Shown one piece after another: positions 286 through 54,793 of a DNA stretch of 54,909 nt. The first letter of the stretch is position 1. Each line of letters opens with the position of its first letter. The notes below the pieces were generated by a model that was not told the origin of the DNA, searched no databases, and saw nothing but the letters and a program-made list of their open reading frames with translations. This DNA comes from Minisyncoccota bacterium (GTDB taxonomy: Bacteria > Patescibacteriota > Minisyncoccia > Phycocordibacterales > Phycocordibacteraceae): the NCBI GenBank assembly GCA_022841985.1, contig JALHQL010000001.1:71529-126437 (forward strand). The letters are read 5' to 3'. The translations under genes were made by a program, and so were the position numbers.

Positions 286-1905
286 ATGACGCCCGTTAAG
301 GAAATTTTGGCTGAAATGACGAATGCCTCTCCCGAGGATATCGCATTCGTACAGAAAGCGTATGAATTCTCAAAGAAGGCACACGAGGGACAAAAACGCT
401 ATTCGGGTGAGCCCTATTTCATACATGCTGCGGCAACCGCGAAGATTCTTGCTGAATACGATATGGACGCAATCACCATTGCCGCAGGACTTCTTCACGA
501 TGCTGTCGAGGATGCGCGTGCCTCGCGCGAAGAAATCGAGAAAGAATTCGGAAATGAATTGCTTTTCATCGTCGATGGCGTAACTAAACTCGGCACCCAC
601 AAATACCGCGGTGCGGAGCGACATGCGGAGAGCCTCCGTCGACTACTTGTGGCAACCGCAAGCGACATACGCGTCCTTATCGTTAAGCTCGCTGACCGTT
701 TTCACAATATGCAGACGCTAGAACACGTGCCGGAACAGAAGCGTCGCCGCATCGCACTTGAAACACTTGAAATTTACGCACCTATCGCTGATCGACTTGG
801 TATGGGTAAAATGAAGAATGCTCTCGAAGACCTTGCGTTTCCTTATGTTGACCCCGATGCCGCAAATCACACTGCCGAAGTACGCAAACTGAAGACAAAA
901 GAGACTGAAGAAGGTCTTGCGAAAGTGCAAAAAGAACTTGAGAGCGAACTTACAAAGAAAAGCTTTGCAACACTCCGCACTGATATCCGCATGAAAGGGC
1001 TCTGGAGTCTGCACCAGAAACTCAAGAGAAAACATGACGACATTAGCCTCATCCATGATATCGCTGCCCTGCGCATTGTTGTGCCGACCGTTGAAGACTG
1101 TTATACAACGCTCGGCACCGTACACGCGCTCTACAAGCCGGTTCCTGGTGAGTTTAAAGACTACATCGCTTTCCCAAAACCGAACGGCTATCAATCACTC
1201 CACACGACCGTGGTAACCCCCGAAGCGGGTATCGTCGAAATCCAAATCCGCACTGAAGAGATGCATCGAGGGGCTCAGTTCGGCATCGCTTCCCACATGT
1301 CATATAAGCAATTAGGAAAAGGCATCGAAAAACTCGAGAAGGAAACTCAAAAGAGTAGATTTTCATCACTCTCGTTATCTTGGGTTCGCTGGATTATCCC
1401 TTCCCTTATGAAAGTAACAAAGAAGAAAAGTGAGGAAAAAAGTATCGCGAAGACACCTGTATGGCTCACCGAGCTTGCTGAGGCGCACACGGAAGTCATT
1501 GGGTCTAAGGAATTTGTTAATGGACTCAAAGAAGATTTTTTTTCGCACCGCGTATTCGTTTTCACCCCTAATGGAGACGTTATTGACCTTCCGGCAGCGT
1601 CAACGCCGATCGATTTCGCGTACGCAATACATAGCGATCTAGGAGACCATCTTCAAGGCGCAAAAGTGAACGGAAAACTTGTCTCGTTTGAGACGGTACT
1701 CGGCAATGGAGACGTCGTTGAGATAGTACGTCGAGATTCTGCACATCCCTCATCCAAATGGCTCGACATCGTACGAACCTCACTCGCGAGACGACACATC
1801 CGCGCTGCACTCGGCATGACTGAGTCAGAAAAATCATCCGAGGAAAAGAAGCCTCGAGCGCGCAAAGAAAAGACTGCAGGATTGCACAGGAAAACCGCTC
1901 ATTAA
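286..1905 (+). CDS. relA: RelA/SpoT family (p)ppGpp synthetase/hydrolase (HD + synthetase + TGS, no ACT domain)
   Basis: RYSGEPY, LLHDAVED, KLADRFHNM, PKPNGYQSLHT, EIQIRT, TGS motif TPIDFAYAIHS; -10 TATAGT 6 nt before ATG. Confidence 0.95.
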   Translation: MTPVKEILAEMTNASPEDIAFVQKAYEFSKKAHEGQKRYSGEPYFIHAAATAKILAEYDMDAITIAAGLLHDAVEDARASREEIEKEFGNELLFIVDGVTKLGTHKYRGAERHAESLRRLLVATASDIRVLIVKLADRFHNMQTLEHVPEQKRRRIALETLEIYAPIADRLGMGKMKNALEDLAFPYVDPDAANHTAEVRKLKTKETEEGLAKVQKELESELTKKSFATLRTDIRMKGLWSLHQKLKRKHDDISLIHDIAALRIVVPTVEDCYTTLGTVHALYKPVPGEFKDYIAFPKPNGYQSLHTTVVTPEAGIVEIQIRTEEMHRGAQFGIASHMSYKQLGKGIEKLEKETQKSRFSSLSLSWVRWIIPSLMKVTKKKSEEKSIAKTPVWLTELAEAHTEVIGSKEFVNGLKEDFFSHRVFVFTPNGDVIDLPAASTPIDFAYAIHSDLGDHLQGAKVNGKLVSFETVLGNGDVVEIVRRDSAHPSSKWLDIVRTSLARRHIRAALGMTESEKSSEEKKPRARKEKTAGLHRKTAH

Positions 1906-46280: not shown

Positions 46281-47456
46281 ATGCAAAAACCGCTTCAATT
46301 TACCATTGTCATGGTATTCCTCCTTGGAGTATTTCTTACGTCTGGAAATTTTCAAACTGCTCACGCTCAAGAACTAATACAGAATAAGGTTGAAACCGTC
46401 AAAGCGCAGGTACTTGAAATTTTAAGCCAGGAGGTGAGAAATATTCCTGGCACTGAGACGAGTCATGATTTTCAGAAGATCAAAGCCAAGATTCTCGAAG
46501 GTGATCAGAAGGGACAAGAGATCACCGTCGACAATGATTACTTAAGTCTGAAAGTCGATGAGATTTTTTATCTTCGACACGAGACGGACGGCCTCGACGG
46601 AAGAGAAATGTATGCAGTTTCAGAACCCTATCGTCTTCCGGCACTCTACGGGTTCATTTCACTCTTCGTATTTTGTGTGATTGTTTTTGGCGGTTGGCAG
46701 GGACTCCGTGGACTAATTGCGCTTGCAGCGAGTTTTGTATTTATTTTCTACCTACTCTTTCCGGGTATTATGCACGGCTACTCGCCGATCTTGGTGAGTA
46801 TTGGCGTATCTTCACTCATTATTGTACTTGGCTCGTACGTAACGCATGGGTTTAATAGGACGACAACATCAGCGGTAATCGGTATGGTCACCACGATTTT
46901 GTTTACTGGTGCACTCGCATACTACGCCGTCGATGTAACACGTTTAAGTGGCTTCTCCTCAGAAGAATCGGTGTACCTCAATTTCGGTACGAACGGCACA
47001 ATTGATTTTGTCGGCCTCCTGCTCGGCGGTATTCTCATCGGATTGCTGGGCGTGCTTTATGATGCCGCAATAAGCCAAGCTATTGCGATTGAGGAACTAC
47101 ACAAAATCGGACCTCATCTTTCACGCGCCTTCATTTTTAAACGCGCGCTTCGTATCGGGCGCGAACACATCGGTGCTCTCGTGAACACGTTGGCAATCGC
47201 GTATGTTGGTGCATCGTTACCCCTTCTCCTGCTTTTCTATGCGACCACTGACTCTAGCTTCTCGCTGAATCTGAACCGAGAATTGTTTGCTACTGAAGTC
47301 ATCCGAACGATGATTGGTTCAATTGGTTTGGTGCTAGCCGTTCCTATCACCTCGTTAATCTCTGTACTTATGTTGGTTAAACACCATGTTGTATCTGACA
47401 AGAGATTAGTAAGTAAAGAACAAGAGGCGATTGAGCACGTCTCGCATACCCATTAG
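46281..47456 (+). CDS. YibE/F family multi-TM protein
   Basis: GLRGLIAL, IGLLGVLYD, GREHIGALVNTLAIAYVGASLP, GSIGLVLAVPIT; His-rich tail. Confidence 0.88.
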   Translation: MQKPLQFTIVMVFLLGVFLTSGNFQTAHAQELIQNKVETVKAQVLEILSQEVRNIPGTETSHDFQKIKAKILEGDQKGQEITVDNDYLSLKVDEIFYLRHETDGLDGREMYAVSEPYRLPALYGFISLFVFCVIVFGGWQGLRGLIALAASFVFIFYLLFPGIMHGYSPILVSIGVSSLIIVLGSYVTHGFNRTTTSAVIGMVTTILFTGALAYYAVDVTRLSGFSSEESVYLNFGTNGTIDFVGLLLGGILIGLLGVLYDAAISQAIAIEELHKIGPHLSRAFIFKRALRIGREHIGALVNTLAIAYVGASLPLLLLFYATTDSSFSLNLNRELFATEVIRTMIGSIGLVLAVPITSLISVLMLVKHHVVSDKRLVSKEQEAIEHVSHTH

Positions 47457-48740
47457 TTACTCCATCGTCACCTTTTTATCTTTCAGAAACAGTTTGCTTT
47501 GCAAGCACCCGAGCAGTTCTCGTTTTTCAATCAGTGTTCCTTCCTTCAGTAAGTACTTCGCGTAATTTCTCACGTCGACATCGATAGCGACTTTATCCTG
47601 TTTATGTCCCAATACTCCCGATCTAAATTTGTTGAATCGCTTTATCTCATCCTCGATCCTTGCTCGCACACCTAGTTCGTCTAAGTTCACTGTATCGATG
47701 AGTCCTATCAGTTCTTCGATCAAGCTCGGTTCGTTTACCGCAGGGTTCTTACAGTCTATGTTTCGCGCCTTTGTACAGAAGTAGTACACATGTCGGTTTA
47801 CACCACCATCTTTTAGTTTCTTGAATTTCTCGTCTGCTGATATGCCTGATCCGCAGTGTCCGCACCGTATCAGTTTTGTGAAGGCGAACTCCTTACTCTC
47901 AGTCTTTGGTATGTAATTTGCATTTAAAGTTAGCTGTACTTTTGTATATAGCTCCTTATCTATTATCGGTGTGTGCTTTCCCGTGTACCATTGACCACCT
48001 CCGACTGGATATTCAAAGTCTCCGTAGTAGAACGGATTTCGTAAGATTATGTAGATGTTTGCGAGCACGAGTGGCTTACCTCGATGTGTTTTGAAGTCTA
48101 TTTCTCTCAGCCATCGGTATACTTTTCGTCCACTCCATTGTTCATGCGCGACCTTCTCAAACATCTGTTTGATAATTGGTCCACGCTTTAGATCTATTCT
48201 GCACTGGCATTTCTTGTCGACATGTTTCTCATTTAAGTATCCCGTCGGTGCAACTCCTGGTCTCCATCCCATCTCACATCGGGTTCGTAATCCTCGCTTC
48301 ACATTCACTGCCTTGTTATCGTTCTCGAGTTTTGCCTGACTTCCAAGAATCATCAGAAGGAATTTCTCATTCGGATTGTTGGTGAACTTTTGACTATACG
48401 TTCGTATCTCATGCAGAAGCTTCTGATCCATCAGGTCTACCACCGATCCTAAGTCTCCAGCATTTCTGCTTAGTCTGTCCGGCGCCCATGTGAGAATCGC
48501 ATTGAATTTCTGCGAGCGTAGTTCCTCGAGCATTTTGTTGTATACAGGTCTCTGTCCAACCTCCTTTGAAGAGTGCGATTCACGTTTTATCTCGACCACG
48601 TGCAGATGCTCACGTTCAGCCAGCACCTGCATTTCCTTTACCTGTGACTCTATTGAAAGAGCCTGTTTGTCCTCAGCTTCGGTACTTTTGCGTGCGTAGA
48701 GGCAGTATCGTAAGGCCCCTTGTGGTTGCGTTTTTTTCAT
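47457..48740 (-). CDS. Large serine recombinase (resolvase + recombinase + Zn ribbon)
   Basis: YARKS catalytic Ser, DRLSRN, APTGY, HTPII, CGHCG...YYFC. Confidence 0.93.
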   Translation of the reverse strand: MKKTQPQGALRYCLYARKSTEAEDKQALSIESQVKEMQVLAEREHLHVVEIKRESHSSKEVGQRPVYNKMLEELRSQKFNAILTWAPDRLSRNAGDLGSVVDLMDQKLLHEIRTYSQKFTNNPNEKFLLMILGSQAKLENDNKAVNVKRGLRTRCEMGWRPGVAPTGYLNEKHVDKKCQCRIDLKRGPIIKQMFEKVAHEQWSGRKVYRWLREIDFKTHRGKPLVLANIYIILRNPFYYGDFEYPVGGGQWYTGKHTPIIDKELYTKVQLTLNANYIPKTESKEFAFTKLIRCGHCGSGISADEKFKKLKDGGVNRHVYYFCTKARNIDCKNPAVNEPSLIEELIGLIDTVNLDELGVRARIEDEIKRFNKFRSGVLGHKQDKVAIDVDVRNYAKYLLKEGTLIEKRELLGCLQSKLFLKDKKVTME

Positions 48741-48823
48741 ACACCACAAGGAATGACGCAATGGCTCCTAGGAGTCTAGGATGGGTAAGTTGATAACTTT
48801 TTAGCACGCATATGCTCAAGTTC

Positions 48824-48860: not shown

Positions 48861-49607
48861 ATGCAAAAAAACAATCAGGGGTATGAAGCTGTAGTGCAAC
48901 TTCTAAGAGATCATCCCGAATGGTTTCCTGTGGTGGCAGCTGCCCTAGAAGAAGCGCAGACCATTAAGAGCAACCGCTTTGCGGGTGCGTGGATTCTTGA
49001 GCGCGCGAAGAAGCATGGGGTCCAGTGGATTCCCAATTTTCGTAAGCTTGTTTCCTATGGAATTTTACAGAAGGACGGTGAGTCATCTCGCGGTGGCCGT
49101 CGCGCATATTATTCGATGCCTGATGTTGCAGGTGTGGAGAAAGCACTAAAGGAATTCGATTCCCCACAAGTTGCAGCACCGTACACCGCTCATGAAGTTA
49201 CGGATTCTGGCATTGCTAAAAGAAAAAATATCCTGGTACCATTTTATGCGAATCTCGCATCATGTGGTGGTCCGAATATTAGTGAGGGATATGTCGATGA
49301 TTATGTTGAAGTAAGTACGGAGTCTGCAAAACCCGGCTACCAGTATTATCTTGTTCGTGCGGACGGGGACTCAATGAATCAAGCGGGAATAAATAGTGGG
49401 GATCTCATTTTGGTGCGTGTTCAGGATTACGCCAACCTAGGCGATAGAGTTATTGCATGTACAGACGATGGTGTCACCATCAAGGAATTTCACCGACAAG
49501 GTAATTCTATCCTTTTGATGCCGCGTTCAGACAATTCCGCGCACAAACCTTTATTACTAGATAGCGTTCAAATACAAGGAGTCGTCGTTGCGACGGTGCC
49601 GAAATAA
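48861..49607 (+). CDS. LexA/UmuD-like S24 autopeptidase with N-terminal putative winged-helix domain
   Basis: ASCG cleavage site, ADGDSM (Ser), VTIKEF (Lys), IQGVV. Confidence 0.85.
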   Translation: MQKNNQGYEAVVQLLRDHPEWFPVVAAALEEAQTIKSNRFAGAWILERAKKHGVQWIPNFRKLVSYGILQKDGESSRGGRRAYYSMPDVAGVEKALKEFDSPQVAAPYTAHEVTDSGIAKRKNILVPFYANLASCGGPNISEGYVDDYVEVSTESAKPGYQYYLVRADGDSMNQAGINSGDLILVRVQDYANLGDRVIACTDDGVTIKEFHRQGNSILLMPRSDNSAHKPLLLDSVQIQGVVVATVPK

Positions 49608-49611
49608 ATAT

Positions 49612-49845
49612 ATGACAAAGAAAAATTTTCACAGTGTTCCTAAGGATAATAGATGGGCGGTCAAAAAAGAAGGAATAGTAAAACCTCTTTCTATGCATCG
49701 CACCCAAGCAACTGCAGAAGAAAAAACACGACTACTTGCGAAAAAGGCAGAAGTTGAAGCTGTGTACCACAACAAAAAGGGAGAAATCAAAGATAAGGAT
49801 AGTTTCGGTCACGATCCGAACCCACCCAAAGATCGGGTGCATTAA
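49612..49845 (+). CDS. DUF2188 family protein
   Basis: HSVP..RWAVKKEG...HRTQ..A....H...GEI..KDSFGHDPNPPKD. Confidence 0.85.
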   Translation: MTKKNFHSVPKDNRWAVKKEGIVKPLSMHRTQATAEEKTRLLAKKAEVEAVYHNKKGEIKDKDSFGHDPNPPKDRVH

Positions 49846-49864
49846 TAATTAAACAATAAATTTT

Positions 49865-50317
49865 ATGAAACCAACCGTTTTTGTGAGTTTTGATTACGAC
49901 AACGATAAACACTATAAGTATCTGCTTGAAGCTTGGAACAATAATCCAAAATTTAAGTTTGTGTTCGATGATGGAACACCACAGGAGATAGATAGCAACA
50001 ATGTCGGTCGCATAAAAGCTGCACTTACGTCAAAGATAAAAGATGCGACACACACATTGGTTATTGTCGGCAAGAACGCCAATGATATGCATCGCAAGAG
50101 TTCATTAATCGGCTATCGTAACTGGATAAATTTTGAGGTGGCAAAGAGTGTTGAGTTAGGAAAACGTATTGCCGCTGTAAAGCTTGATCGTTCCTATACA
50201 TCTCCAGATGAACTTTCGGGCGCGAGTGCTTCATGGGCCTATTCATTTACTGAGGCGAATATAATAAAAGCACTGGAAGACGCACCGTACCCAGGACTCA
50301 TACGCCGCTATGTCTGA
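49865..50317 (+). CDS. ThsB-like TIR domain protein (DUF1863/MTH538-type)
   Basis: VFVSFDYDND, TLVIVGK, NWINFEV with catalytic-position Glu. Confidence 0.85.
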   Translation: MKPTVFVSFDYDNDKHYKYLLEAWNNNPKFKFVFDDGTPQEIDSNNVGRIKAALTSKIKDATHTLVIVGKNANDMHRKSSLIGYRNWINFEVAKSVELGKRIAAVKLDRSYTSPDELSGASASWAYSFTEANIIKALEDAPYPGLIRRYV

Positions 50318-50912
50318 TAAACCACTTTCAATTATCTACGATCACTACAAGGAGACTTGCACCATTATCAGCGAGGCAGTAAAGCGTCGCGATCGCTTGA
50401 TGGTTTTTGTGATAATAGCCCTTAGTTTTTTCGCTTTTCAGACAATTTTTCCTACCACTTCGGACACGGTAGTCAATGATTTCCTTAGTTTCAAATTTGG
50501 ACTAACTCTCAAGTTTGATCTTTCCATAATTGGTAATGTCGTGTGGTTTTTATTACTCATATTCACGCTCCGGTATTTTCAGGTCGCAGTCTTTGTTGAG
50601 AGACAGTATTCGTACTTACACGCGACCGAAGAAAAACTTAACAAGGAATTTGGGCAAGAACTGATCACGCGCGAAGGCAAGTCTTACTTACATAAATATC
50701 CCTTGTTCTCGGACTGGATGTGGATGCTTTACACGATTATATTTCCACTCATTTTGCTTGTTGTTAGTGTAGTAAAGATAGTGAGCGAGTTGAAGTATTT
50801 GTGTGTGAACGGATGGTCTTTTGGTCTACTTTTAGACGGCACGGCGTTCATCCTCCTGGCAATATCGATCGTTCTTTATTTAACAACACTTCACAGAAAA
50901 TCTAAAGACTAA
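50310..50912 (+). CDS. Four-TM membrane protein, putative defence effector
   Basis: Four hydrophobic helices; overlaps TIR1 stop by 8 nt and ends 6 nt before TIR2. Confidence 0.75.
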   Translation: MSDKPLSIIYDHYKETCTIISEAVKRRDRLMVFVIIALSFFAFQTIFPTTSDTVVNDFLSFKFGLTLKFDLSIIGNVVWFLLLIFTLRYFQVAVFVERQYSYLHATEEKLNKEFGQELITREGKSYLHKYPLFSDWMWMLYTIIFPLILLVVSVVKIVSELKYLCVNGWSFGLLLDGTAFILLAISIVLYLTTLHRKSKD

Positions 50913-50918
50913 AATACT

Positions 50919-51467
50919 ATGGCTTACAGAAACGGAACATATGTAGCATTCCATGCAAACAATACTTCTGATCCTTCAGAATCTGACATGAAGTATTACA
51001 ACACCCTCAGAATGTGGAAGGTGCGCGATGAAAGCGATTTTAAATTTATTAACAGTCACGAAAAACGTGATGTTCGTGATTCAAGCACAAAAGAAACCCT
51101 TCGGCGTGCCTTGAGGGAGAGGATGAATAATTCCAAACATCTTTTATTAATTATCGGCGATACTACGCGTTTCGATACGGACTGGATACCATTTGAGATC
51201 ATTCACGCGGTGGATAACTGTGATATTCCAATAATTGCTGCATACCCTGATTACGACAGGATCATGGATCCAAGTGCCTTATCTACTTTATGGCCAAAAG
51301 CATTAGCGGATCGCATAAATAACAAGACCGCACGAGTTATCCATGTTCCATTTAAGAAAGAACCAATTGCAGATGCTATCTCTCAATTTGATTTTGAGAG
51401 TCCTCCGAAGGGAAGCCTCTCTTACTATTCCAAGGAGGCATATATTAGTTGGGGGCATGTTTTTTGA
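50919..51467 (+). CDS. Second ThsB-like TIR domain protein (DUF1863-type)
   Basis: MAYRNGTYVAF, FINSHE, VRDSS, LRERMNNSKHLLLIIG, DWIPFEI with catalytic-position Glu. Confidence 0.85.
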   Translation: MAYRNGTYVAFHANNTSDPSESDMKYYNTLRMWKVRDESDFKFINSHEKRDVRDSSTKETLRRALRERMNNSKHLLLIIGDTTRFDTDWIPFEIIHAVDNCDIPIIAAYPDYDRIMDPSALSTLWPKALADRINNKTARVIHVPFKKEPIADAISQFDFESPPKGSLSYYSKEAYISWGHVF

Positions 51468-51560
51468 TCGCCATTAATTCTCTGTTGGTAACTCCGCTTC
51501 GCAAGCCTTCAAAGCTAAGTTAAGGTGTCAAACGATAGCGCTTTTTGCTATCATGTTCAT

Positions 51561-51740
51561 GTACAACTGAATATCTGGCCGGAAGGCCAGCGACCTAACC
51601 CCTCACGTTTTGCGTGAGGATATGGTCGGGAAAGCCCTTCGCAGACACTGAACCCCACGTTCAGCGACTCTGCGAAGGGTCATATCGGGAAACTGGTATG
51701 TGGCCGCAAGGCCTAGCTAGCGTGGGGTTTAGTGTTATAT
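51561..51740 (+). ncRNA. Candidate structured ncRNA or cis-regulatory leader
   Basis: Extended -10 TGcTATCAT just upstream; several stems with GGAA/GAAA/GCAA tetraloops; 15-bp long-range pairing. Confidence 0.55.
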
Positions 51741-51786
51741 GGACTCCTCGCTTGTTAGGCAAATTTATTAACTAGCCTAAACAAGT

Positions 51787-52248
51787 ATGGAACAGCAAAT
51801 AGAGAAGTCGAAGAAAAAGCTTTATCAGCGTTGGTGGATGTGGGTCATTTATGCCATCGCATTCACTATTGTGATTGCCAACTTTAGCGGGTCGAGCAGT
51901 AGCTCCGCTCCTGCGTCAGCTCCACCACAAGAAGCGATCAAAGTGACCGCTCTTAAGATAGTCAATGACTACAAGGAAAACGGTGTCGCGGCAGATGCTA
52001 CCTACAAAGGCAAAATTATTGAAGTCACAGGTACCGTAAAGACAATAGACAAGGATATTCTCGATACGCCATATATCGCACTCGAGAGTTACGAGTATGC
52101 CATCGTCGATCACGTGCAGTGCATGTTCCCGAGGTCGAGCGCGGCGGAGTTAGCGACCGTGACAAAGGGGCAGAAGATAACACTCCGTGGAAAGGTGCTC
52201 ACCAATATGGGCAACATCCTTGTCGAGGATTGCTTAATCGTGAGATAG
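51787..52248 (+). CDS. Membrane-anchored OB-fold protein (tRNA_anti-like family)
   Basis: KKKLYQRWWMW TM anchor, Ser/Pro linker, DYKENGVAADATYKGKIIEVTG, KGQKITLRGK. Confidence 0.78.
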   Translation: MEQQIEKSKKKLYQRWWMWVIYAIAFTIVIANFSGSSSSSAPASAPPQEAIKVTALKIVNDYKENGVAADATYKGKIIEVTGTVKTIDKDILDTPYIALESYEYAIVDHVQCMFPRSSAAELATVTKGQKITLRGKVLTNMGNILVEDCLIVR

Positions 52249-52689
52249 TCACTTCTTTGTTTCTTTTCGAATAATGCCGTAATTCTTGAGTGCGTTCATA
52301 ATCGGTTCCACGATGTGTGGTGGTAATTTATTTCTATCAACGTGAGCCTTCAGTCGCTCATAGTCTCTACGTTCAATTTCCGTTAGTGGCTCGACGAATC
52401 TACTTCTCTTCGGCATATATCGTGGATCGTTGTGTGTCAGGAAAAATTGGATTGCTCGTAACTTTTCATTCTTTACACCTTTCATAAGTGCCGCCTCGGC
52501 AACCTCGATCCAACGCTCTCGACCATCTTTGAGTGCGCGATTAACACCCCGTCGGTAGTCGACGTTACTCTCCATCCAGCGGTAGTGCGTTGCCCGAGCT
52601 ATTCCTACACTTTTGCAGGCATGTTCTATGTTCGGATTGTCTGCAAGTAACCGGATGATTTTATTCCTTTCATCACTGGTTCGTGCCAT
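52249..52689 (-). CDS. HTH protein resembling phage small terminase N-terminal domain
   Basis: IEHACKSVGIARATHYRW HTH, AEAALMK...AIQFFL; coupled to ParB-MTase. Confidence 0.65.
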   Translation of the reverse strand: MARTSDERNKIIRLLADNPNIEHACKSVGIARATHYRWMESNVDYRRGVNRALKDGRERWIEVAEAALMKGVKNEKLRAIQFFLTHNDPRYMPKRSRFVEPLTEIERRDYERLKAHVDRNKLPPHIVEPIMNALKNYGIIRKETKK

Positions 52690-54717: not shown

Positions 54718-54793
54718 TAGCAAAATACCAAGGTTCGGCTCGTCCTATCCACGCCCCTTGGGGGCGTGGATAGGACGAGCCGGTGTTTTGCTA
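54718..54793. repeat. Long GC-rich inverted repeat
   Basis: Perfect 22-bp stem 54736-54757/54761-54782, flanked by TAGCAAAATACC/GGTGTTTTGCTA. Confidence 0.85.

Follow-up and report, generated by a model that had tools for sequence, protein, structure and literature searches.

LOOT RNA (Rfam RF03000) is an orphan family of structured RNAs. The motif originates in a survey of 224 motifs (PMC5737381), is pictured in the Rfam 14 paper (PMC7779021) to illustrate a 'metagenomic-based RNA', and had its structure adjusted in Rfam 15 by the addition of two covarying pairs (PMC11701678); a CaCoFold preprint describes about 43 base pairs in six helices with unusual cross-covariations. Rfam gives its type as 'Gene; sRNA' (small RNA), and no function was found in the literature searched, the survey's own description of LOOT being placed in a supplement outside the searched text. 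Here, a LOOT RNA is described from a 54,909-nucleotide (nt) stretch of a Minisyncoccota bacterium (JALHQL010000001.1, positions 71,529 to 126,437), referred to below as the window. This RNA belongs fully to the family and carries flanks omitted by the Rfam model, which describes no promoter, no 5′ box, no downstream gene and no 3′ strand pairing with the P2a hairpin of the core, although a pseudoknot or an associated gene may have been noted already in the supplement of the survey. These features outside the core are a real, family-wide extension of LOOT. On balance, though by no means firmly, we read the whole as a cis-acting two-state leader with its own promoter, in which the LOOT fold would be the on state and a long, terminator-like helix the off state.

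Two other described systems bear comparison with this locus. As in riboswitch and attenuator leaders, two mutually exclusive, covarying helices are found in LOOT, one of them followed by a U-rich tract, and the RNA lies upstream of a gene. In contrast to such leaders, LOOT precedes functionally unrelated cargo and not the genes of one pathway, and no conserved binding pocket is seen in it. LOOT and its variable gene also resemble the 'moron'-like cargo of integrative elements of large serine recombinases, since they reside in an island with a recombinase, a ParB-methylase and a helix-turn-helix (HTH) protein. No account of cargo genes of this kind sharing a structured leader was found in the literature searched.

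A cmscan search of the whole window against Rfam 15 assigned 51592–51714 on the plus strand to RF03000 with 80 bits (gathering score 46.4; E 1.6e-13 over the whole window). The match is untruncated and covers model positions 1–121 of 121. All six helices are present in the order of the model, with three non-canonical pairs, one each in P1a, P2a and P4, and the CCUAA...AUGG internal loop and the GAAA loop of the family are retained; the core thus shows no differences from LOOT, and the Rfam model ends with P4 at position 121. The only other Rfam family reported at E up to 1 was mir-2830, at chance level (18.6 bits against a cut-off of 70). An initial annotation, made from the sequence alone, had been unable to assign the RNA to a known family and had proposed it as new unless a described Rfam family matched; with this match, the claim of novelty falls. 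The helices, loops, extended −10 and 15-nt pairing that it had listed were all recovered in place, and its view of a structured RNA read from the plus strand is borne out. The plus-strand fold of 51561–51745 has an energy of −89.0 kcal/mol (z = −7.28; 0/200 shuffles as good) and the minus-strand fold one of −76.0 kcal/mol (z = −5.05), a difference that fits an RNA read from the plus strand. Three GNRA loops (GGAA, GAAA and GCAA) are present at the element, and the LOOT helices are recovered when 51561–51714 is folded without the tail, that is, the 3′ strand that follows the core. The features of the locus are collected in Table 1.

Table 1. Coordinates of the LOOT RNA, its flanks and its neighbours (window numbering unless a contig is given)
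Feature	Position	Strand	Details
Promoter-like site	51525-51554	+	GTGTCA, 18-nt spacer, TATCAT, TG before -10
Extended -10 TGcTATCAT	51546-51554	+	Part of promoter-like site
Palindrome GATAGC-N7-GCTATC	51534-51552	.	Overlaps -10; read from sequence
5′ box ACAACTGAATA	51563-51573	+	Outside Rfam model
5′ hairpin CTGGCC-GGAA-GGCCAG	51575-51590	+	Outside Rfam model
P1	51592-95/51624-27	+	LOOT core; RF03000 alignment
CGACC/GGTCG enclosing P1a	51591-95/51624-28	+	Read from sequence
P1a	51601-07/51613-19	+	LOOT core; CCTCACG/CGTGAGG
Receptor-like internal loop around P1a	CCUAAC 51594-99 and UAUGG 51621-25	+	Resembles 11-nt GAAA-tetraloop receptor
P2	51635-45/51669-79	+	LOOT core; CCCTTCGCAGA/TCTGCGAAGGG, 11 base pairs
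P2a	51648-53/51659-64	+	LOOT core; CTGAAC-cccac-GTTCAG (51648-64), inside P2
P3	51681-88/51693-700	+	LOOT core; CATATCGG-gaaa-CTGGTATG, GAAA loop 51689-92
P4	51702-05/51710-13	+	LOOT core; GGCC-gcaa-GGCC (51702-13)
3′ strand (tail)	51716-51736	+	Outside Rfam model; pairs with 51644-51665; contains U/G-rich tract GGGGTTTAGTGT
Alternative tail partner	51741-51753	+	Pairs locally with 51716-51731 (fold of 51715-51800 alone)
Hairpin CUUGUUAGGC/GCCUAAACAAG	51751-51785	+	Ends 1 nt before AUG of downstream gene
Downstream gene	51787-52248	+	153 aa, OB fold, Pfam tRNA_anti-like PF12869, E 1.4e-23
Large serine recombinase	47457-48761	-	Abuts stop of host YibE/F gene (46281-47456), no spacer
Thoeris-like block, recombinase to LOOT	48861-51467		S24 LexA-like (48861-49607), DUF2188 (PADLOC PDC-S16), two ThsB-type TIRs
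Second LOOT copy	C2:2225-2341 (L058, G000:C2:1-2400)	-	68 bits

The pairing of 51645–51659 with 51721–51735 over 15 nt had been proposed either as a loop pseudoknot or as a mutually exclusive fold. The unconstrained minimum-energy fold picks the long helix over the inner hairpin, with 51644–51661 joined to 51719–51736 and 51663–51665 to 51716–51718. This amounts to 21 tail-to-core pairs in the window, where the partners of the tail are the 5′ arm, the loop and the start of the 3′ arm of P2a. For comparison, 49 LOOT copies, 20 from relatives and 29 from a phylum-wide draw, were aligned with MAFFT without structural input, with 30 nt of 5′ and 45 nt of 3′ flank per core (alignment A1). In all 49 copies, a segment complementary to the P2a 5′ arm and loop starts a few nucleotides past the end of the model. 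The long helix (A1 columns 104–123/197–216, window 51645–51663/51717–51735) has 85.8% of its cells in standard pairs, compared with 92.2% for P3, the positive-control helix, and both-side changes are seen at 19/19 pairs. Registers slid by 1–3 columns pair in only 40–52% of cells. Structure-wide, none of 500 shuffles matched the observed pairing or covariation score; because shuffling disregards the kinship of the copies, the slid registers are the fairer control. Many pairs of the long helix are G-U and valid on the plus strand only. An earlier, noisy permutation of duplex energies with 45-nt flanks gave −35.0 for native, −26.4 for crossed and −25.7 for shuffled combinations. The proposed pairing is real and competes with the local hairpin throughout the family. 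A 53-residue GTG-start open reading frame (ORF; 51614–51775) overlaps the RNA and, given the covariation pattern, is almost certainly not a gene.

The hairpin with which the long helix competes is itself conserved. When folding is constrained to leave the tail single-stranded, all 49 copies form an inner P2a hairpin of 3–7 base pairs, and a hand count gave 30 different stem sequences among them. The alignments that Rfam itself provides for 10 diverse members show mostly non-canonical pairs, with low posterior probabilities, on the outside of the 8-base-pair P2a and retain the inner 3–6 base pairs. RNAalifold predicted no pairs on the MAFFT alignment of the P2/P2a segment, a null result that reflects variable helices not aligned by structure. 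Across the family, the tail spans the A-rich stretch before P2a, the entire 5′ arm, the loop and 2–5 nt of the 3′ arm, so that the long helix and P2a are mutually exclusive; the long helix is also very likely incompatible with the full P2. Two conserved structures that share nucleotides and exclude each other are what is looked for in a riboswitch, and their joint maintenance by compensating changes points to a switch or to folding along an ordered pathway.

The energetic effect of the tail varies among copies. Addition of 26 nt of tail lowers the energy of the nested model by a mean of 8.8 kcal/mol (range 2.4–17.9; 13.8 in the window), with a gain of at least 5 kcal/mol in 39/49 copies, and at least 10 tail-to-core pairs are present in the minimum-energy fold of 31/49. 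The U/G-rich tract of the 3′ strand, which follows the G+C-rich part of the long helix, reads G(C/T)TTT(T/G)TGT in the family. T is found in 37–46 of the 49 copies at A1 columns 209, 210, 212 and 214, and a T-run of at least three in the 3′ strand of 43/49. At the tract, nearly every pair is A-U, G-U or U-G; in P3, by contrast, every type of pair occurs. With a conserved U/G-rich tract on its 3′ side and a matching A-tract, the long helix looks like an intrinsic terminator of large size. Downstream, the tail has a third possible partner (Table 1), and similar local hairpins are visible by eye, without a formal count, in the 3′ flanks of many other copies.

The LOOT fold may be braced by a tertiary contact. 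The canonical 11-nt receptor of GAAA tetraloops, CCUAAG...UAUGG, occurs in group I and group II introns and in RNase P. The CCUAAC...UAUGG loop of the window agrees with this consensus at 10/11 positions. It is accompanied on P3 by a GAAA loop that does not vary, and all 49 copies carry GAAA in the 3′ half of their core. The halves of the internal loop covary among copies: CCUAAA is combined with CAUGG at least 21 times and CCUAAC with UAUGG at least 11 times, and one relative has the canonical CCUAAG/UAUGG. Unlike in the canonical receptor, the closing G-U is replaced by A with C in most copies and by C with U in the window. From these sequence patterns, the P3 GAAA loop probably docks into the CCUAAC/UAUGG loop of P1.

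A promoter-like site precedes the RNA and scores 9/12 with the TG present. Such sites are no more frequent in the scanned region than expected by chance (2 found, 1.7 expected). Across the family, however, the 60 nt 5′ of the core contain TGnTAnnnT in 25/49 copies, compared with 1/48 and 4/49 control stretches. The 5′ box ACAACTGAATA, which is probably the transcript start, recurs with up to two mismatches in 16/49 copies but in 0/48 control stretches and 0.85 per 49 in shuffles; ACAAYT occurs within 30 nt upstream of the core in 24/49 copies and 0/48 controls. Pairing of the box with the 3′ untranslated region or the start region was considered and rejected (native duplex −7.21, crossed −7.62, p = 0.72). 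The 5′ hairpin between box and core is an optional, lineage-specific insert: small hairpins in this position are otherwise found only in L007 and L016, and the distance from box to core is 15–19 nt in hairpin-bearing copies and 1–7 nt in the others. The palindrome overlapping the −10 could be an operator, for example for the S24 LexA-like repressor encoded in the Thoeris-like block, and the GATAGC...GCTATC arrangement also precedes LOOT in the genus relatives L003, L008, L013 and L015. Further upstream, close variants of 51495–51529 (CTTCGCAAGCC ... AAGCTAAGTTAAGGTGTC) lie 5′ of LOOT in L008, L009, L010, L013, L014 and L015, which indicates that the conserved module reaches about 100 nt 5′ of the RNA.

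The LOOT core of the window is followed after 72 nt by the gene for the OB-fold protein, whose sequence begins with a hydrophobic stretch. By a simple rule (same strand, at least 45 residues), an ORF starts 31–200 nt after the core in 48/49 copies, with a median of 59 nt and 37/48 within 76 nt. Starts so near the core leave little room for a separate promoter. The suggestion that the RNA is a riboswitch-like leader for the OB-fold gene is thus favored by the comparative data, in which a gene follows almost every copy and the alternative helix covaries. The products are mutually unrelated, and 26/48 have no Pfam match. Among them are two tRNA_anti-like OB proteins (including that of the window), two superinfection-immunity proteins, a Cap15 receptor domain, several zinc-ribbon proteins, some with a hydrophobic stretch as read from their sequences, a DUF4352 protein, a secreted nuclease, a D12 methylase and a TnsA-like nuclease. 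The copy at 824–944 (+) of L020 (G001:C65) is the only one of the 49 that lacks a following gene on its strand and so apparently stands alone; it is followed by a canonical hairpin and a T-run. It faces a further copy at 1501–1618 (−) across two small genes.

In 10/49 copies, the downstream start codon is overlapped or immediately preceded by an exact repeat, 9–14 nt long, of the P2 5′ arm, 38–49 nt after the core (L009, L010, L013, L014, L015, L021, L024, L029, L033 and L041), and this repeat often includes the A-rich linker that precedes the arm; repeats of at least 9 nt occur in 5.2% of cross-pair controls. The P2 3′ arm could thereby mask the start. The hairpin in front of the AUG in the window is apparently specific to this copy, and positions 51775–51786 are almost never unpaired in the fold ensemble.

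LOOT is scattered among uncultivated, metagenomic bacteria, of which the present ultra-small bacterium (genome of 671 kb, 98% complete, two LOOT copies) is one. It scores over the cut-off in 17/61 relatives, in 30/151 genomes drawn from the phylum and in 0/14 control genomes; at E ≤ 0.001 it is found in 12/36 genomes of the same genus and 5/24 from other families of the order. The island of the window begins directly after the host YibE/F gene, and in six relatives with the same gene no recombinase was found in the following 500 nt. A serine-recombinase homologue lies within 8 kb of 25/47 other LOOT loci and 2.8 kb from the copy of the window. The background for this proximity comes from the window's own genome only, which has four serine-recombinase genes in 671 kb, two of them near the two LOOT copies. 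The order recombinase, LOOT with cargo, HTH and ParB-methylase recurs in L103 and L109, which lack the 2.8-kb block that parts recombinase and LOOT in the window. In this block, the two ThsB-type TIRs have E-values of 1.7e-12 and 4.8e-66, and the 200-residue ORF between them (50310–50912) has no Pfam or PADLOC match and is membrane-protein-like in sequence; no recognisable ThsA was found in 48861–51467.

The link to islands and defence loci suggested by the initial annotation is seen at other LOOT loci as well. Families classed as mobile or defence-related occur within 1.5 kb of 27/43 loci (147/166 ORFs scanned, a count without background control) and include resolvase, ParB-methylase, parts of restriction-modification systems, OLD/AAA_15, AbiV, KAP, reverse transcriptase, zeta toxin, PycTM, Ltp, IS1595 transposase and others. 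The second copy in the genome leads a gene for an 82-residue zinc-ribbon protein, in which inspection suggests a hydrophobic stretch, a 69-residue ORF and then a Pycsar pair (PADLOC: PycTM 1.4e-35, PycC cyclase 4.4e-82), and a serine recombinase homologue lies 5 kb away. In the window, a perfect 22-nt inverted repeat with a 3-nt spacer is present at 54736–54782 (CGGCTCGTCCTATCCACGCCCC / GGGGCGTGGATAGGACGAGCCG), which might serve as a terminator or in recombination as a site.

Several other explanations can be offered for these observations. The element could be a free-standing, trans-acting sRNA of about 175 nt, running from about 51561 to the U-rich tract at about 51737–51745, with the long helix as its terminator and the neighbouring gene expressed by leak-through or independently. 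Such an RNA would account for the promoter motif, for the terminator-like helix with its U/G-rich tract, for the gene-less L020 copy with its canonical hairpin and for the typing in Rfam. We nevertheless regard it as unlikely, since a same-strand gene follows 48 of the 49 copies, mostly too closely for a promoter of its own, and a fifth of them repeat the P2 arm in cis at the start codon. In addition, further matches to the P2 arms in the window and its genome, sense or antisense, stayed at chance level, with 9 and 5 compared with 9 and 7 for a control pattern, the P2 arms being the only seed tried. Somewhat less probable still is a static leader without a switch, in which the tail pairing would be a permanent pseudoknot or the final fold, P2a a folding intermediate, and the RNA a stabiliser of the mRNA 5′ end or a protein scaffold. 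Conservation is higher in the long helix than in the outer pairs of P2a, the long helix is thermodynamically preferred, and no junction resembling a ligand pocket is conserved, all as this explanation would have it. Retention of inner P2a through 30 stem sequences in every copy is hard to explain if the hairpin were irrelevant, and the tail covers too much of P2a for the two to coexist. With linkers of only 3–8 nt, full P2 alongside a 19-base-pair tail helix would also be strained (by geometric reasoning, not computation), and the tail has its third partner downstream.

Very improbable, in our estimation, is a role at the level of DNA, for instance as a site of recombination or the boundary of a cassette in the serine-recombinase island. 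The proximity of recombinases and the highly variable downstream genes would suit it, whereas frequent G-U pairs that work on the plus strand only and a fixed orientation to the following gene speak against it, and the tetraloops and receptor-like loop are properties of an RNA; neither related repeats nor an antisense copy of LOOT were found elsewhere in the island of the window. The initial annotation had also entertained a ribozyme. Nothing was found in favor of self-cleavage in the leader beyond the overall appearance of the RNA, which is compact, has several helices and tertiary-contact motifs, and lies among mobile elements; no Rfam ribozyme family matched at E up to 1, and the conserved unpaired nucleotides are largely explained by the tetraloop and receptor-like loop, which leaves this the least credible of the explanations.

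In the two-state leader that we favor, the extended −10 promoter would drive transcription of LOOT toward the OB-fold gene. P2 and P2a would fold first during synthesis and give the LOOT fold (P1/P1a, P2/P2a, P3 and P4), probably braced by the contact of the GAAA loop with its receptor. In this state, RNA polymerase would continue into the cargo gene. The tail, as it emerges, would invade P2a, probably from the hairpin loop, and form a helix of 18–21 base pairs; the gene would then be off, through termination, masking or loss of the productive fold. Pairing of 51741–51753 with the tail would lock the first state after passage of the polymerase. About one copy in five, that of the window not included, would gain translational control in addition from the P2-arm repeat at the start codon. 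Candidates for what sets the switch are a ligand, Mg2+, a protein or folding kinetics.

A number of observations weigh against this proposal. The 49 copies are kin, and the shuffle controls hence overstate significance; in 18 of them the minimum-energy fold is nested without the long helix, so the energetic argument does not hold uniformly. Unlike the simple hairpins of riboswitch and attenuator leaders, the terminator-like stem closes a multibranch loop of about 55 nt, with the P2 3′ arm, P3 and P4, which is unusual for an intrinsic terminator. The U-tract of the window is weak, TTT-A-GTGTT (TTTAGTGTT), and a scan of 51300–52400 with a classical terminator consensus returned no sites. Outside the tetraloop and its receptor, the conserved unpaired nucleotides are few, as judged from the invariant columns of A1; this argues against a pocket for a small molecule and leaves Mg2+, a protein or folding kinetics. 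A few of the downstream ORF calls may be spurious, such as 49-residue and TTG-start ORFs, and no start-codon copy of the P2 5′ arm is present in the window. The sequencing runs on record that hold the stretch are 14 of DNA and none of RNA.

What is gained from the window alone is small, since the core was already catalogued. The comparison across the family suggests that the Rfam LOOT model be extended by about 25 nt at its 3′ end. A bolder generalization, possible but doubtful and put forward tentatively, is that LOOT is a switch class specific to the Candidate Phyla Radiation (CPR) and not an sRNA, that the Rfam model misses its expression platform in the 3′ strand, that a core held by a signal is the on state, and that the class gates horizontally acquired surface, immunity and defence cargo in serine-recombinase islands. 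If this were true, the OB-fold gene next to the Thoeris-like TIR operon and the Pycsar operon at the second copy would both be gated in this organism. For the family, the promoter, the covarying alternative helix, the adjacent gene and residence in islands turn an 'unknown sRNA' into a testable leader-switch model for mobile cargo.

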